The notes beneath the pieces are model-generated. The model had not been told where the DNA came from. It worked only from the letters and a program-made list of their open reading frames with translations, and did not search any database. The translations under genes and the position numbers were made by a program. 64,000 bases of DNA. Source: a virus. Every line of letters begins with the position of its first letter. Position 1 is the stretch's first letter. Shown in pieces: positions 1-38,164 of the stretch. The stretch lies in IMG/VR virus record IMGVR_UViG_3300020470_001965; one strand, written 5' to 3'.

Positions 1-267
1 CCACAACAAAAGATAGATCCAACTTTCATAGCTTCAGTTTTTACTGGAGTTTTAGCGAGCTTCGGAATTCAGACAGCGAGTAAGAAAGGTGATGGTACCA
101 TGAAGATGGACAAGAATGGTAACCCTGCTGGTGGACCACCACCTGTCACTGCTAAGGATATAGAAGCAATCATAGCGAAAGCTGGACCTACTCAAACTAT
201 TCGTATTGAGCAAGCACCTCTTAAAATAGTTGGTGTCTCAACCGATGACAAACCTTACAAACTATAG
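1..267 (+). CDS. Partial (5'-truncated) cyanophage/cyanobacterial hypothetical membrane protein
   Basis: Frame 1 is open from base 1 (PQQKIDPTFIASVFTGVLASFGIQ...KPYKL) to TAG at 265-267; not in the supplied ORF track. Confidence 0.7.
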   Translation, partial: PQQKIDPTFIASVFTGVLASFGIQTASKKGDGTMKMDKNGNPAGGPPPVTAKDIEAIIAKAGPTQTIRIEQAPLKIVGVSTDDKPYKL

Positions 268-271
268 AATC

Positions 272-490
272 ATGCAAAAAATTGTTAACGTACTAGCACT
301 CGTATCTTTCGTAGGTATAGTTGGTGTAGTAGGAGCTGGGGGATATGTTTTTCTTCAGAAGGATGCCATCATTAAAGATGTAACAGAAGGTATATTGGGT
401 GATGTCCTTGGTGATATGCCAGCAATCCCAGAAGTACCAGCAGCAACAGGTGGAGTCGCACCACCAGCAGGGCTAGGTGTCCCTAACTAG
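272..490 (+). CDS. Hypothetical protein with N-terminal transmembrane helix
   Basis: MQKIVNVLALVSFVGIVGVVGAGGYVF; ATG 4 nt after the upstream stop. Confidence 0.7.
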   Translation: MQKIVNVLALVSFVGIVGVVGAGGYVFLQKDAIIKDVTEGILGDVLGDMPAIPEVPAATGGVAPPAGLGVPN

Positions 491-1305
491 TGGACATAAA
501 TGAGATTATGGTTAGGATGCGAGAGATTAAAAATCCTCGCATCACTATCATAGACAATACTGATATTACCATTCCTAATAAACAGATATCTGAAATAAGA
601 AATCAGGATATCCAAGGTATTAATACTGGGGATGTTAAAGTTTATGAGATTAGGGATCCTGTTGTCACAGGTTTGACTGTACCTGTTACTGTGGATGCAG
701 GTAAACCTATTGTCAATATACCTGGTTGTGTTAAAGCACATAAGGATAATGCTGGTAAGAATAAGAACCTCGTAGATGATGACCCTAAGGGTGTCATGAC
801 TTATTGCGATGGTTCACAACCATCATTTAGTCCTATGGACTATCAAAGTGATGAGTTAACATTTGAGCAGGAGAAATACGAACCAAACCTCAAGATACCA
901 CCACCTAAGGTTCCAGATCCACCTGAGGTTCCAGCGATACAATGCTATGAACCACAGATTAAAGATCCTGTAACGGGTCAGTGTATTGATGAACCTACAC
1001 AGAATACCGAACAAAAGGATGATGGTCCTTCGTTTGCAGAACAATATTTACCTGAGGTAAGTACGGTTACTACTACAGCAGCGATAGCAGTGGTAGCTAC
1101 CTCGTCAGCATTACTTGCTAAACCATTAGCAGATCTATTACTTAAGGTCATCAAACCTGCAGTCAAGCAGGCAATGACCAAAATCCAAAGACTACTGGGT
1201 AAGAATCCATATAAACCATCAAGGAATGAGATCATTGCTAATGCATATAGAGAGAAGAAAGGGTTGCTGCCACTGAAGCCTCAGAAAAAGAAGAAGAATA
1301 AATAA
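490..1305 (+). CDS. Conserved cyanophage hypothetical protein (Pro-rich linker, C-terminal hydrophobic segment)
   Basis: 271-aa ORF; start may be further downstream. Confidence 0.7.
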   Translation: MDINEIMVRMREIKNPRITIIDNTDITIPNKQISEIRNQDIQGINTGDVKVYEIRDPVVTGLTVPVTVDAGKPIVNIPGCVKAHKDNAGKNKNLVDDDPKGVMTYCDGSQPSFSPMDYQSDELTFEQEKYEPNLKIPPPKVPDPPEVPAIQCYEPQIKDPVTGQCIDEPTQNTEQKDDGPSFAEQYLPEVSTVTTTAAIAVVATSSALLAKPLADLLLKVIKPAVKQAMTKIQRLLGKNPYKPSRNEIIANAYREKKGLLPLKPQKKKKNK

Positions 1306-2173: not shown

Positions 2174-2197
2174 GTCCCTCCTTGAGAGGGACTTTTT
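2174..2197 (+). terminator. Rho-independent terminator
   Basis: GTCCCTC-cttga-GAGGGAC + TTTTT. Confidence 0.8.
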
Positions 2198-2230: not shown

Positions 2231-3028
2231 ATGACAGCACTAATTGATCCAAAAGAATACTCCGACGTGGTTGACCTATTGAGGTCATTTTTTTTGTCTA
2301 AAAATTTCCTAGAAGTTCATACACAAAATCGTTTAAGTATCCTTGCTGCCTGTGAAGACCCAGAGACAGTAGCAACATATGAATACAATGGTCAGGTATG
2401 GCCACTGCCACAGACAGGTCAGATGTGGTTAGAATATGAATTACTATCCAACCCCAAAGCAGAGGGGTTTTTCTGTGTCTCAACGTCGTATAGGGCAGAA
2501 CCAAACCCTGTACCAGGAAGACATGAAGTTATCTTCCCCATGTTTGAGTTCGAGATGAAGGGTGGTGTTAAAGAACTCGAAGATATGGAGAAAGAACTGT
2601 GTGAATGGTTGGGTATACCATTAGATATTGGTAGTATTAGAACCTATCAAGAATGGTCTGACGTTTATGATACAAAAGAACTTGACCATGAACATGAAGA
2701 TTGGATTGGTCGTGGTATGATTACTGACTTCCCTGAGTGGACATCACCATTCTGGAACATGGCTAGAAATGATGATGGTACTAGTAAAAAGATTGATGTT
2801 ATTCTAGGTGGTAAAGAAACTATTGGTAGTGCTGAAAGGAGTACCGATAAGGATCAGATGAGAGAGACCTTCTATACCATATCAGATGGTAAGTATGCTC
2901 AACTTATTATTGATCTGTTTGGTAAGGAAAGAGTAGAGAAAGAACTAGAAGACTTCCTCTCATTCGATTTCTTCCCACGATCAGGTGGAGGCATTGGTAT
3001 ACAACGTCTTATATCAGCCCTTAAGTAA
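2231..3028 (+). CDS. Class IIb aminoacyl-tRNA synthetase paralog (AsnRS/AspRS-like catalytic domain only; AsnRS2/asparagine synthetase-like)
   Basis: Motif 1 LRSFFLSKNFLEVHT, motif 2 YRAE..RH..F.M.EFEM, ETIGSAER, motif 3 PRSGGGIGIQRL; 265 aa with no N-terminal OB-fold anticodon-binding domain. Confidence 0.85.
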   Translation: MTALIDPKEYSDVVDLLRSFFLSKNFLEVHTQNRLSILAACEDPETVATYEYNGQVWPLPQTGQMWLEYELLSNPKAEGFFCVSTSYRAEPNPVPGRHEVIFPMFEFEMKGGVKELEDMEKELCEWLGIPLDIGSIRTYQEWSDVYDTKELDHEHEDWIGRGMITDFPEWTSPFWNMARNDDGTSKKIDVILGGKETIGSAERSTDKDQMRETFYTISDGKYAQLIIDLFGKERVEKELEDFLSFDFFPRSGGGIGIQRLISALK

Positions 3029-3037
3029 GGGCAACTA

Positions 3038-3123
3038 TGTGAGGTGACGAAACTGGTAAACGTGGCAGGTTGTTTCCCTGCTGTTCCTGGCGGGACTTGG
3101 TGGTTCGACTCCACCCCTCACAG
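3038..3123 (+). tRNA. Atypical tRNA with GTT (Asn) anticodon and long variable arm; CCA not encoded
   Basis: Acceptor TGTGAGG/CCTCACA + G73; D arm ACG-AAACTGGTAAA-CGT; anticodon arm GCAGG-TTGTTTC-CCTGC; variable arm GTTCC-TGGC-GGGAC; T arm GGTGG-TTCGACT-CCACC. Confidence 0.9.
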
Positions 3124-4272
3124 TTATTTTTCTACGACTGGATTAGAGATAGATACTGGTTCGAATACGAAGTCTTCGTTAGCACCTATGGTTTCTCTCT
3201 TGATGAGTTTTGCTTTACCATTCTCATCATACTCAAAGACTGATACCTCCGTTGCTGATGTCTTTACTCGTACTGTTTTATTCTTAATAGTTTGGTTACC
3301 ATCTCCGTCAACCTCATAGGTTGTTACTTCTTCTTTATTATCGTTAGCAGTTACCTGTGGGATAGTATGTGAGTGATTTGGTAGTCCGTTTTGAGGTAAA
3401 GTAACCACAACGTCAGCACAAACACTAGCATATGGTGACTTCGGATGGAAGACTATGCCTTGCTGTTTGAGTTCACCACAATTTTTGAGACGAGCTATCT
3501 CAAAGTCTAGCCTTTTGTTGGCAAGTAACTGTGCTTGTAGTGCTGTCTGTGTATTATATGCTTTCTTACAACCGTTTTGTAGTTGTTTATCTAATGGTAT
3601 TGATATCGTTGCACTGATACCTAAATTTAGATTCAGGTTATCCTTCTGTCCAGTTCTAGTAGGAATATAGTAGAGGATCTGACCTGGATTATCTGGGATA
3701 CCATCGTCATCATTGTCTGCGTTATTGTAGACAGGATCATCATAGTAATATTCTTTAGGATTCTGGTGTGATATCGCATGTGTCACAAATGGTGTGATGT
3801 TAAGGGTAGGACCCTGACACGAGATACCATTGCCATATGTGTTTGTAATATATGGACCTTGTAAAACTTGTATTGCCTGGTTGGTGACTGAGCCCGAACT
3901 ATTAGCTATCGGATTGGCAGTCGCACTAACACCTCCTACGTCTGCTGCATAGGTAGGTGAACATGTTAACGCTGCAATTACTGGGAGAAGATACTTGTTG
4001 TATCTGTTACGCTTGTTACGTTGGTGGTACGTTGGATTATTGTCTGGTTGGATATACCTGGTCCCATGTATGTAGTCGTTAGTTGGAATGCCCCTCCTGG
4101 AGTTGTTATCGTGTAGTCTCCTAGGGTTGATAGATCCAGTTGAGATGTTGTCTGAGGAGTTGTGTCCGTGGCTGAACCAAGTACGTCTACTGAACCCGAT
4201 GTTACGGTTGCGTCGGGTAATAGACTTGATCCATTGTGTGAAATTCCTGTTCCCGTTACTGAATATTGCCAT
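3124..4272 (-). CDS. Conserved cyanophage protein with signal-peptide-like segment; true start unresolved (probably near 3978-4000)
   Basis: Mature-like part ADVGGVSATANPIANSSGSVTNQAIQVLQGPY; the first ~95 codons overlap the upstream gene in another frame. Confidence 0.7.
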   Translation of the reverse strand: MAIFSNGNRNFTQWIKSITRRNRNIGFSRRTWFSHGHNSSDNISTGSINPRRLHDNNSRRGIPTNDYIHGTRYIQPDNNPTYHQRNKRNRYNKYLLPVIAALTCSPTYAADVGGVSATANPIANSSGSVTNQAIQVLQGPYITNTYGNGISCQGPTLNITPFVTHAISHQNPKEYYYDDPVYNNADNDDDGIPDNPGQILYYIPTRTGQKDNLNLNLGISATISIPLDKQLQNGCKKAYNTQTALQAQLLANKRLDFEIARLKNCGELKQQGIVFHPKSPYASVCADVVVTLPQNGLPNHSHTIPQVTANDNKEEVTTYEVDGDGNQTIKNKTVRVKTSATEVSVFEYDENGKAKLIKRETIGANEDFVFEPVSISNPVVEK

Positions 4273-4448
4273 CCTGTATTATAGTCAATAGAGTTAATCG
4301 TCTCAGTCACTGTCGAGGTTGTCTCGGTGTGGCTCGTCATTGAGCCCTGGGTGAAGTTGGGGACCACAGGGACCGCCAGGGCAGGTACAGCACTTGCAAG
4401 TACAGTACCCACAGCAGTCACATATAGGGCAATCGTCTTCTTCATCAC
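3978..4448 (-). CDS. Secreted or virion Ser/Thr-rich beta protein
   Basis: Signal peptide ...AVPALA|VPVVPNFTQGSMTSHTETT. Confidence 0.8.
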   Translation of the reverse strand: MMKKTIALYVTAVGTVLASAVPALAVPVVPNFTQGSMTSHTETTSTVTETINSIDYNTGWQYSVTGTGISHNGSSLLPDATVTSGSVDVLGSATDTTPQTTSQLDLSTLGDYTITTPGGAFQLTTTYMGPGISNQTIIQRTTNVTSVTDTTSIFSQ

Positions 4449-4457
4449 TATATATCA

Positions 4458-4979
4458 CTATCTTACTGTGAGTTCAGTTACGAATTGTGTTGTTACTGTA
4501 GTACCAGCACCACCAGCATTAGGTGCATCATCACCAGTAGCAAAACCATGAGCACTAGTAACCTGACCAGCTAGGTCTCCAGCAGATCCAGCAGCAGTAG
4601 AATACTGATTAGAGTATGCAGCAACAGCACCAGTAGAAGGTGCAGAACCTATAGCGTCACCTGTAGTTAGACTAGTTGTGAAGCTGAATGCATTTCCAGC
4701 AGTGGTTTGGGTCGCATCTGGAACAGTAAATGTAGCAACACCTGTGTTACTTACAGCAGATATACCACCAAGACTTGCAGCAGCGGATCCACCAGACGGT
4801 GTTACTGTTGTTGTGACATTATTTCCTGATATACTAAACGTATTTCCAGCTCTAGTGACAGATGTCGCAGCTGCGTCCACTGTTAAAGCAGCACTCGTTG
4901 TCATACGGTGGTGTATATCGGCTCTTGCAGCAGAGCCACTCATCAAAATCATACCGAAAAGCAGTAATACTTTTCTCAT
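4458..4979 (-). CDS. Secreted or virion Ala/Thr/Gly-rich protein
   Basis: Signal peptide MRKVLLLFGMILMSGSAARA|DIHH; C-terminal QFVTELTVR. Confidence 0.8.
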   Translation of the reverse strand: MRKVLLLFGMILMSGSAARADIHHRMTTSAALTVDAAATSVTRAGNTFSISGNNVTTTVTPSGGSAAASLGGISAVSNTGVATFTVPDATQTTAGNAFSFTTSLTTGDAIGSAPSTGAVAAYSNQYSTAAGSAGDLAGQVTSAHGFATGDDAPNAGGAGTTVTTQFVTELTVR

Positions 4980-5072
4980 GTGTTTTTACCTAGGTGATTC
5001 TATTTAGCTGATTACGACCTGTTACAAATGTACTATTCGGATAGCACTACCCCTAGTATCAGGCCGATGTGC

Positions 5073-5080
5073 TATAAATA
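5073..5080 (+). promoter_or_regulatory. T4-type late promoter upstream of hsp20
   Basis: TATAAATA. Confidence 0.7.
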
Positions 5081-5139
5081 TATGTGGATGCCTTTGGGGT
5101 CCACAAAACACAAACTCGCTTAGTAAAGGAGCTACTATC

Positions 5140-5568
5140 ATGGGAAACCTAACACGTTATCGTGCGACAGATCTTCCACAACTAATGGAAAAGATCAACA
5201 AGTATGGCATAGGACTAGACTCATACTTCGATCATTTCTTTAGTCAAGATCAATCGACAAACTATCCACCCTACAATTTGATTCATCTTAGTAATCATGA
5301 ATCACGTTTGGAGGTCGCACTAGCAGGATTTAAAAAGGATGAAGTCAAAGTGTATACCGAGTATGGTAAACTCTTTGTAGAAGGTAAGGTAGAAGAGAAA
5401 GAAGAACCAGAGTATGCTTACAGAGGACTCTCTAAGAGAAACTTCAGTAGGTCATGGCAACTCTCTGAGGATGTAGAGATCAAGCATGTTGATTTCGAAG
5501 ATGGACTACTGAATGTTTTACTTGGTAAGGTAGTTCCTGAGCACCATGCAAGAAAAGACTATATGTGA
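5140..5568 (+). CDS. hsp20: Small heat-shock protein (Hsp20/IbpA-like)
   Basis: NYPPYNL, EVALAGF, YRGLSKRNFSRSWQL, FEDGLL; SD AAGGAG. Confidence 0.95.
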   Translation: MGNLTRYRATDLPQLMEKINKYGIGLDSYFDHFFSQDQSTNYPPYNLIHLSNHESRLEVALAGFKKDEVKVYTEYGKLFVEGKVEEKEEPEYAYRGLSKRNFSRSWQLSEDVEIKHVDFEDGLLNVLLGKVVPEHHARKDYM

Positions 5569-27507: not shown

Positions 27508-27558
27508 ATGCTAAACTGGACGCAGTAAATCTAAATACTGTAGCGTCCTTCTTTTCAT

Positions 27559-28212
27559 ATGAAAATTTTCCTAGACAGTAGTAACGTAGAAGAGATCACT
27601 GCTGCCGTGGAGACGGGGTTAGTTGATGGTGTTACTACAAACCCATCCTTAATGCTTCAGGCAGGAGAAGATCCTAATGAAGTACTCAAACAAATTACTG
27701 GACTGTTCTCATGGGATGCTTCAGTATCTGCTGAAGTCAGCGGAGAAGTAGCAGAGAACATGCTAGACATGGCAGAGGAATATCTTGCCATTCATCCAAG
27801 TATTACAATCAAAGTCCCATGTAATATAGAGGGACTCAAAGCATGTAGAGAACTATCAAACGATGAGATACCTGTTAACGTTACTCTAGTATTCTCTACC
27901 GCACAAGCAATCCTTGCTGCTAAAGCAGGTGCTGCATATGTATCACCATTTGTAGGTAGGGTCAATGATAACTCTTTCAGTGGGGTTGAGTTGATCGAAC
28001 ACATCAGTAGAACTTATAAGAAGCATGATGTTGAGACACAAATCCTTGCAGCGAGTCTCAGGGATGTGTTTGATGTGTCAAAGTGTTACGAAGTGGGTGC
28101 AGATGTGGTAACCATGCCTCCAAAGATCTTCTGGGGGATGTATAATCATATTCTAACCGAGAAAGGGTTAGCCAAATTTAACGAGGACTGGAGGAAAGTC
28201 TTAGACCGATGA
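27559..28212 (+). CDS. talC: Transaldolase (TalC/FSA family)
   Basis: IFLDS, GVTTNPSL, TIKVP, NVTLVFS, YVSPFVGR, LAASLR. Confidence 0.96.
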   Translation: MKIFLDSSNVEEITAAVETGLVDGVTTNPSLMLQAGEDPNEVLKQITGLFSWDASVSAEVSGEVAENMLDMAEEYLAIHPSITIKVPCNIEGLKACRELSNDEIPVNVTLVFSTAQAILAAKAGAAYVSPFVGRVNDNSFSGVELIEHISRTYKKHDVETQILAASLRDVFDVSKCYEVGADVVTMPPKIFWGMYNHILTEKGLAKFNEDWRKVLDR

Positions 28213-37081: not shown

Positions 37082-38164
37082 ATGACTACTCTTCAACAAA
37101 GAAGTAGCAGCCCGCTTAAGAATTGGGACGAGTTTTGTGCGTGGGTTACCTCCACGGACAATCGCTTATACGTTGGTTGGTTCGGAGTCTTAATGATTCC
37201 ATGTCTTCTAGCTGCAGCTACTTGTTTCATCATAGCGTTTATCGCTGCACCACCCGTCGATATAGACGGTATCAGAGAGCCAGTAGCAGGCTCATTAATG
37301 TATGGAAACAACATCATCTCTGGTGCTGTAGTTCCATCCTCTAATGCTATAGGTATGCATTTCTATCCCATCTGGGAGGCAGCATCACTCGATGAGTGGC
37401 TGTATAACGGAGGTCCATACCAGTTAATTGTCTTCCACTTCCTTATCGGAATCTCTGCCTACATGGGTAGACAGTGGGAGTTGTCGTATCGTTTGGGCAT
37501 GCGCCCCTGGATCTGTGTTGCTTATAGTGCGCCAGTCTCAGCTGCCTTTGCAGTATTCCTCATCTATCCTTTCGGACAAGGATCACTCAGTGATGGTATG
37601 CCGCTTGGGATATCGGGAACGTTCAACTTTATGTTTGTCTTCCAAGCGGAGCATAATATCCTTATGCATCCATTCCACATGGCAGGTGTGGCGGGTATGT
37701 TTGGAGGTGCTCTCTTCAGTGCTATGCATGGCTCCTTGGTCACGTCATCGCTCATCAGAGAGACAACTGAAAACGAATCACAAAACTACGGTTACAAGTT
37801 TGGACAAGAAGAAGAAACCTATAACATCGTCGCTGCACACGGGTATTTTGGTCGTTTAATCTTCCAATATGCATCGTTTAATAACAGTCGAAGTTTACAC
37901 TTCTTCCTCGCTGTCTTCCCTGTCGTCTGTATCTGGTTGACCTCAATGGGTATCTGTACGATGGCATTCAACTTGAATGGTTTTAACTTTAACCAATCAA
38001 TTCTGGATGCACAAGGCAAGGTTGTCCCCACGTGGGGTGACGTGCTTAACAGAGCAAACCTAGGTATGGAAGTGATGCACGAGCGTAATGCTCACAACTT
38101 CCCACTTGACCTCGCAGCTGCTGAGGTTACAGAGGTTGCATTACTTGCACCATCTATCGGTTGA
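37082..38164 (+). CDS. psbA: Photosystem II D1 protein
   Basis: [44 protein letters not shown]; no intron. Confidence 0.99.

Follow-up and report, generated by a model that had tools for sequence, protein, structure and literature searches.

What does a phage gain from a tRNA gene that carries the identity elements of tRNA-Asn on the body of another tRNA, and that lies immediately downstream of a gene of synthetase type? Such a gene is found at positions 3038-3123 (plus strand) of the 64,000-nucleotide stretch of viral DNA analysed here (the window), which belongs to a T4-like cyanomyovirus whose nearest isolates are P-RSM6 and P-SSM7. The window also carries psbA (37082-38161, plus strand), which is host-like and 91% identical to Prochlorococcus D1, and ORF 27544-28209 (plus strand), which from its sequence we take to be the transaldolase gene talC. 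Both would be ordinary cyanophage auxiliary genes. The tRNA and enzyme genes are annotated in GenBank, and our literature search found no study of the tRNA architecture, of the enzyme or of the pair.

The only tRNA that ARAGORN calls in the 64 kb of the window has the anticodon GTT and occupies 3038-3123 (plus strand). A search of the 401-base region 2900-3300 with Rfam RF00005 gave 45.5 bits (E 1e-8, model positions 1-71 of 71) for a gathering score of 29. Run at the gathering threshold over the window (1-64000), Rfam reported zero families and missed this tRNA, because its fast filters can lose an atypical tRNA that the regional search recovers. The minimum free energy fold is the cloverleaf described in the initial annotation. 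The acceptor stem (3038-3044 paired with 3116-3122) has 7 bp beginning with U1:A72 and is separated from the D stem by U8 and G9. The D arm (3047-3063) consists of a 3-bp stem and an 11-nt loop of Leu type. It is followed by a 5-bp anticodon stem (3065-3069 with 3077-3081) that closes the loop UUGUUUC (TTGTTTC in the DNA, 3070-3076), in which alignment and tabulation place G34, U35 and U36 at 3072-3074, U37 at 3075 and C38 at 3076. A 17-nt variable arm with a 5-bp stem (3082-3098), a normal T arm (3099-3115) and the discriminator base G73 (3123) complete the molecule, all on the plus strand. No CCA is encoded after G73. The following bases are TTATTT, of which the first three (3124-3126, TTA on the plus strand) are the stop codon of the convergent ORF 3124-4272 (minus strand), as seen in the ORF list and its translation, so that the stop directly abuts G73. 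The unusual features first claimed for this gene, namely the U1:A72 pair, GUU, G73, the 3-bp D stem, the 17-nt arm, the loop with U37, the abutting stop and the missing CCA, were thus recovered from the sequence, the fold and ARAGORN.

The N-terminal third of the convergent ORF is of low complexity and rich in Arg and Asn, and the ORF is matched by no Pfam family. Other cyanophages conserve it only at about 3404-4064, and its true start is therefore probably internal, further downstream on the minus strand. The ORFs 3978-4448 and 4458-4979, also on the minus strand, begin with signal-peptide-like sequences.

The anticodon GUU, G73 and U1:A72 together make up the identity features of tRNA-Asn. 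All are present in the window tRNA and in the host tRNA-Asn, found by pattern search in Prochlorococcus, and the normal T arm is also shared by canonical tRNA-Asn(GUU). However, the host tRNA-Asn is an ordinary type I molecule whose D stem has 4 bp, whose variable loop has 5 nt and whose anticodon loop reads CUGUUAA, whereas the phage tRNA combines its 3-bp D stem with an 11-nt D loop and a 17-nt variable arm. It therefore lacks the type I architecture of tRNA-Asn (4-bp D stem, variable loop of 4-5 nt), and has U37 where bacterial tRNA-Asn has A37. A37 is where t6A is formed in tRNAs for codons beginning with A.

The covariance model R1, derived from the phage tRNAs, was run on three complete Prochlorococcus genomes. 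The best matches were four host tRNA-Leu genes (49-60 bits), followed by Ser and Tyr tRNAs (45-47 bits), and at E <= 0.001 the tRNA-Asn of these genomes was not matched. The D arm is identical to that of host tRNA-Leu at 17 of 19 bases and has the same G18G19 register. The long variable arm and the two unpaired bases before the T stem are also those of bacterial tRNA-Leu, a type II tRNA. Unlike tRNA-Leu, the phage tRNA has a U1:A72 first pair, the anticodon GUU, and G73 in place of A73, A73 being the major LeuRS identity element. Judged by these comparisons the body is tRNA-Leu-like and not tRNA-Asn-like. The chimera proposed at the outset, Asn identity on a type II body of Leu or Ser type, therefore stands, with the body narrowed to the Leu type by the R1 scores and the D arm. 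Charging by SerRS, which would place Ser at Asn codons, was considered in the light of the SerRS recognition rules and is unlikely, since both the D loop and the nucleotides left unpaired at the base of the variable arm follow the Leu and not the Ser type, and 10 of 84 relatives lack the arm.

Anticodon and scaffold of different amino acids are likewise joined in the allo-tRNAs and in Streptomyces tRNA-ProA, for which a dedicated synthetase, ProRSx, is encoded alongside. The phage tRNA differs from the allo-tRNAs in its normal 7/5 cloverleaf: covariation supports a 7-bp acceptor stem and a 5-bp T stem, and not the 8/4 or 9/3 arrangement of allo-tRNAs and tRNA-Sec-like molecules. It differs from tRNA-ProA with ProRSx in that its partner enzyme has no anticodon domain and is linked to pyrimidine genes. 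Because its acceptor identity and its anticodon identity agree (both Asn), no mistranslation is implied.

IMG/VR was scanned with the protein encoded upstream of the tRNA, and more than 594 loci matched. Among the best 80, the odd tRNA was present in every locus with sufficient downstream sequence. We aligned 49 distinct close homologues, which form the window's own clade, and widened the set to 84 distinct tRNAs by adding a distant clade in which the enzyme is 55-60% identical. In the alignment of 49, 99.9% of stem cells are paired, those of the variable stem included. Compensatory changes on both sides occur in 19 of 24 stem pairs, a number matched by none of 500 shuffles, and slid controls pair at 41-49% only. 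GUU and G73 are each found in 84 of 84 tRNAs and U1:A72 in 83, the remaining one having U1·G72; the set thus hardly varies even between tRNAs whose enzymes share no more than about 55% identity. The Leu-type D arm never changes among the relatives. The long variable arm is dispensable: the variable region ranges from 5 to 28 nt among the 84, and the ten tRNAs in which it measures only 5-7 nt have lost the long arm while keeping the D arm of tRNA-Leu. Copies with even longer arms were missed by ARAGORN and recovered by R1. In related clades, CCA is encoded (35 of 84).

This tRNA is genuine and under purifying selection. A decaying or mis-called gene, such as a tRNA-Leu pseudogene with GTT at the anticodon position by chance, might have been suspected from the Leu-like body and from the miss in the whole-window Rfam run. 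Against it stand the nearly complete pairing, the compensatory changes, the frozen identity elements and the CCA of the related clades; covariation excludes it, and we give it a negligible probability. The fully paired stems had already been read as an argument against decay from the single sequence, and the alignment upholds this, the variable stem included.

The partner gene is ORF 2231-3028 (plus strand), whose stop codon is 9 nt upstream of the tRNA. It encodes 265 aa, the length predicted for most homologues, or would encode 275 aa if translation began at the TTG at 2201. In P-SSM7, P-SSM2 and P-SSM5 the same tRNA gene, annotated tRNA-Asn, lies directly after a gene annotated 'tRNA ligase'. 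More generally, wherever a cyanophage locus has sufficient flank, the tRNA comes directly after the enzyme gene, one in-clade genome excepted. A consensus scan detected a terminator-like hairpin with a T tract just upstream (2174-2192, plus strand), which separates the two genes from those preceding them, and no such site between the enzyme gene and the tRNA. The genomic contexts of the pair differ between P-SSM7, P-SSM2 and the window.

The enzyme was extracted from 216 loci, and a tree of 99 non-redundant sequences was built. ARAGORN found the tRNA beside the enzyme in 136 of the 216 loci, and R1 in more. The tRNA-linked enzymes form one clade of 65 rows (SH-aLRT 97), and the tRNA is missing from all 34 rows outside it. 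Where it seemed to be absent within the clade, it mostly had a very long arm and was missed by ARAGORN but recovered by R1. Enzyme and tRNA are thus inherited together, all within one enzyme clade, and the tRNA was gained once on the enzyme tree. Since the pair has a single origin, is retained almost universally and moves as a cassette, tRNA and enzyme are a functional unit, a mobile cassette of two genes in which the tRNA is the RNA component and an AsnRS-like catalytic core the protein component.

Some carriers at the margins of this distribution were looked at individually. The in-clade exception is a 146-kb phage record (L294), in which the odd tRNA is absent beside the enzyme; elsewhere in its genome (L504, 1470-1629) it encodes a canonical type I tRNA-Asn, with A37 and encoded CCA, followed by tRNA-Asp. 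In the huge phages LR756501 and LR756508, which have a distant enzyme, the odd tRNA was not found elsewhere in the genome, the best R1 matches being typed by ARAGORN as ordinary tRNA-Leu, tRNA-Ser and tRNA-Pro. Five large IMG/VR records with a distant enzyme gave no R1 match in two cases and untyped matches in three. A scan based on P0242 yielded no viral loci. In P-SSM2 (NC_006883.2, L082), RefSeq places the tRNA-Asn PSSM2_199 at 5337-5422, inside gene PSSM2_205 and about 2 kb off. ARAGORN finds it at 3325-3412, directly after 'tRNA ligase', as the order of the locus tags implies, and the RefSeq coordinates look stale.

While the identity elements are frozen, positions 33 and 37, normally essential to decoding, are relaxed. 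All 49 tRNAs of the window's own clade have U37. Among the 84, position 37 is U in 73, G in 8 and A in 3, and position 33 is U in 67, C in 11 and A in 6, so that 17 of 84 lack U33. By comparison, U33 and purine-37 occur in every one of the 22 other distinct tRNAs encoded in these loci. The initial annotation had named A37 and short variable loops in homologues as a result that would refute it; the great majority of homologues do not show them, A37 being limited to 3 of 84, G37 to 8 and a short variable region to 10. U37 is therefore a property of the lineage, and the suspicion that this tRNA decodes poorly suits the relaxation seen at both positions. To our knowledge, working tRNAs almost never tolerate a pyrimidine at 37 or a base other than U at 33. 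Hundreds of abundant ocean phages maintain both here, in tRNAs whose stems are perfect. Quadruplet decoding of GUUU is an unlikely explanation, since the loop is constant at 7 nt and some relatives have G or A at 37.

The unusual loop could also be a means of evasion, and the initial annotation had raised a decoy or a nuclease-resistant variant as possibilities. The tRNA would then be a supplementary decoder charged by the host, its loop and body having diverged to escape a tRNA-targeting nuclease or to become independent of host modifications (t6A37, queuosine), and its link to the enzyme would be indirect, through a shared aspartate/asparagine economy or by hitch-hiking. Phage tRNA variants are known to defeat tRNA-cleaving defences. 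The PARIS effector AriB cleaves tRNA-Asn(GUU), and its targets share U36-A37-A38-U39 (PMC12409363). This UAAU is present in two of three host tRNA-Asn genes (MIT9302 and SS51); the phage tRNA has UUC or UUA instead. With C33 or A33, a variant would in addition be deprived of U33-G34-U35, the site needed by bacterial TGT. However, known resistant phage tRNAs keep purine-37 and a normal body, and evasion leaves the adjacency to the enzyme, of single origin and near-universal, unexplained. We consider it unlikely.

The protein encoded by 2231-3028 is a class IIb aminoacyl-tRNA synthetase catalytic core (Pfam PF00152, E 4e-15). Its AlphaFold model (pLDDT 96.6) has AspRS and AsnRS catalytic domains as top Foldseek matches, and the family profile searched against the PDB finds AsnRS 2xti best (2.6e-15) and archaeal AspRS next. 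All class II motifs are present. In the printed alignments the pocket motif is QMWLE, compared with QLYLE in AsnRS and QLYKQ in AspRS. An anticodon-binding domain is absent from the 265-aa enzyme. A split domain encoded beside the cassette was also considered and rejected, because the neighbours differ between P-SSM7, P-SSM2 and the window. A copy of the enzyme gene with 82% identity (record G033, 4441-5256, on the contig of L429) is read through one in-frame TGA; PyrE is encoded on the same 25-kb contig.

The enzyme family comprises 173 clusters at 50% identity with E < 1e-30. About 90 residues, the pocket signature Q..Q..LE among them, are conserved in enzymes within the tRNA clade and in those beyond it. 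No more than four residues are specific to the clade, and the mean net charge of the enzyme within the tRNA clade is -18. Given so many shared residues, so few clade-specific ones and so acidic a protein, no adaptation of the enzyme to bind the new tRNA is visible. The chemistry is probably the same across the family, with or without the tRNA, as far as conserved residues can tell. Stand-alone class IIb cores of about 270-300 aa that act outside translation are known: archaeal asparagine synthetase A (PDB 3P8T), an AsnRS paralogue without anticodon domain, AsnA and EpmA. The phage enzyme resembles them in this respect, and its profile matches 3P8T at E 1e-6 and EpmA at about 1e-5, but true AsnRS and archaeal-type AspRS are nearer to it (E 1e-15 to 1e-13). 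We know of no asparagine synthetase A of the 3P8T type, AsnA or EpmA that travels with a dedicated tRNA or is fused to dihydroorotate dehydrogenase (DHODH).

Fusions to DHODH do occur in the family of the phage enzyme. They are found in P0125 and at least eight further clusters (at least nine in all, 53-58% identity), and P0150 is a single fusion of the enzyme to OMP decarboxylase. A giant-virus bin encodes the enzyme 14 nt ahead of a triple fusion of PyrE, PyrF and PyrD, in this order. This 758-aa protein (L325, 3369-5645, plus strand) follows immediately after the mini-synthetase, and adenylosuccinate synthetase is encoded nearby on the opposite strand (2-1015, minus strand), forming a compact nucleotide-synthesis island. 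PyrD, PyrE or PyrF is fused or adjacent to the enzyme in about 15 of 80 metagenomic loci, and none of these 80 loci has the odd tRNA. Among the ten neighbouring ORFs tested in pyr-linked loci, none encodes ATCase, dihydroorotase or CPSase.

In cyanophages, PyrE is encoded by all four complete genomes with the cassette, and the only cultured phages with the same PyrE among 50,697 phage records are three, all with the cassette. A strict two-way co-occurrence of PyrE and enzyme does not hold, as one complete genome encodes PyrE but not the enzyme, and one 85%-complete genome the enzyme but not PyrE. In most of its distant carriers, the enzyme has no pyr genes nearby. The wiring of the family to the late pyrimidine genes (PyrD, PyrE and PyrF) suggests that the enzyme probably makes dihydroorotate or a direct precursor of it.

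The hosts were examined for the corresponding functions. No asnS was found above the curated cut-off in Prochlorococcus MIT9302, SS51 and MIT1012 or in Synechococcus RCC307, only LysRS and AspRS. The three Prochlorococcus genomes all have gatB and a normal type I tRNA-Asn with A37. By established knowledge, hosts such as these, which lack AsnRS and have GatB, form Asn-tRNA by an indirect two-step route, in which the anticodon and G73 are read by a non-discriminating AspRS and U1:A72 by GatCAB. GUU and G73 are elements read by AspRS and AsnRS alike. The features read by the two-step route, GUU, G73 and U1:A72, are thus the very set that is invariant or nearly so in the phage tRNA. However, the known substrates of the route are normal type I tRNA-Asn molecules used in translation, and the phage tRNA has an enlarged D loop. 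AsnB-family genes exceed the cut-off in SS51 and in MIT1012, which has two adjacent copies, and are absent from MIT9302. Therefore at least some hosts may make asparagine only on tRNA, and free Asn may exist in two of the three Prochlorococcus.

The main rival to the reading that we prefer is a private synthetase and tRNA pair for translation. The cut-down AsnRS-like enzyme would charge the tRNA directly with Asn, recognizing the acceptor end (G73, U1:A72) and perhaps the odd body, and would give the phage a one-step route to Asn-tRNA for AAC and AAU codons in hosts that have the two-step route only. The adjacency and co-transfer of the two genes, the class II motifs, the AsnRS-type pocket on a confidently modelled catalytic domain, and hosts without AsnRS all agree with such a pair. 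So do the invariant GUU, the preserved L-shape nucleotides and the CCA encoded in 35 of the 84 homologues. Moreover, a 2010 comparative paper, which lists 'tRNA ligase' in one table, gives this tRNA as the only one of P-SSM2 (PMC3037559). However, the same family with the same pocket is fused to DHODH or OMP decarboxylase, or sits in PyrD/E/F clusters, where the tRNA is absent. The enzyme has almost no clade-specific residues, is very acidic and lacks an anticodon-binding domain, and a decoder of codons that begin with A would be poorly served by U37 (87% of the tRNAs) and by a base other than U at 33 (20%). A private pair is therefore possible but doubtful.

In the reading that we favour, with a probability of roughly 0.4, the tRNA would be loaded through host AspRS and GatCAB and reserved for carrying or supplying asparagine to an enzyme whose product goes to dihydroorotate dehydrogenase. 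The non-discriminating AspRS of the host would read GUU and G73 and attach Asp to the phage tRNA. GatCAB would read U1:A72 and convert this Asp to Asn on the tRNA. The charged molecule would then act mainly as the Asn carrier or supply of the neighbouring enzyme and not as an efficient decoder, and the enzyme would make dihydroorotate or its direct precursor, which feeds the PyrD step. Such a carrier would account for the freezing of GUU, G73 and U1:A72 while positions 33 and 37 drift, and for an enzyme that is unchanged, with its 90 common residues, four clade-specific ones and strongly negative charge. It would also account for the restriction of the tRNA to a phage clade whose known hosts lack AsnRS. 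The position of the tRNA after the enzyme gene in cyanophage loci, its confinement to a single supported clade, the presence of gatB with a normal tRNA-Asn in hosts without asnS, and the pyrimidine fusions and neighbourhoods of the enzyme family are all consistent with it.

Several observations weigh against the carrier. We infer the loading and hand-over steps, that is the charging agent, the amino acid and the route by which it reaches the enzyme, and a tRNA that donates an amino acid to nucleotide metabolism would, as far as we know, be without precedent. The enlarged D loop of Leu type could be an anti-determinant for GatCAB, by analogy with tRNA-Glu and tRNA-Asp. If only recognition by AspRS mattered, U36 could drift; its invariance fits decoding. 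Free Asn may be available in the two Prochlorococcus with AsnB-family genes, and N-carbamoyl-aspartate as a substrate would explain the pyrimidine link without any tRNA. Finally, most of the distant carriers of the enzyme lack nearby pyr genes, and one complete cyanophage genome has PyrE without the enzyme. The fullest form of the carrier reading is more tentative. In it the tRNA would not be primarily a translation adaptor but a scaffold supplied by the phage, on which host AspRS and GatCAB build Asn and from which the AsnRS-derived enzyme diverts it into a viral shortcut to dihydroorotate, and thus to pyrimidine nucleotides, in hosts that make Asn only on tRNA.

Under either reading the automatic labels 'tRNA-Asn' and 'tRNA ligase' hide a cassette in which one tRNA unites the scaffold of one amino acid with the complete identity set of another and is locked to a synthetase-derived enzyme in hosts without that synthetase. 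Were the private pair true, it would be a natural orthogonal pair, of interest to genetic-code engineering. Were the tRNA an Asn carrier for a pyrimidine shortcut, this would be a new role of tRNA outside translation, and cyanophages of global importance would have a new set of viral metabolic genes.

A second tRNA of P-SSM7 also departs from its type. Its tRNA-Leu(UAA) (L001, 3897-3969) is only 73 nt long and has no long variable arm, and is thus the mirror image of the Leu-bodied Asn tRNA encoded by the same phage.
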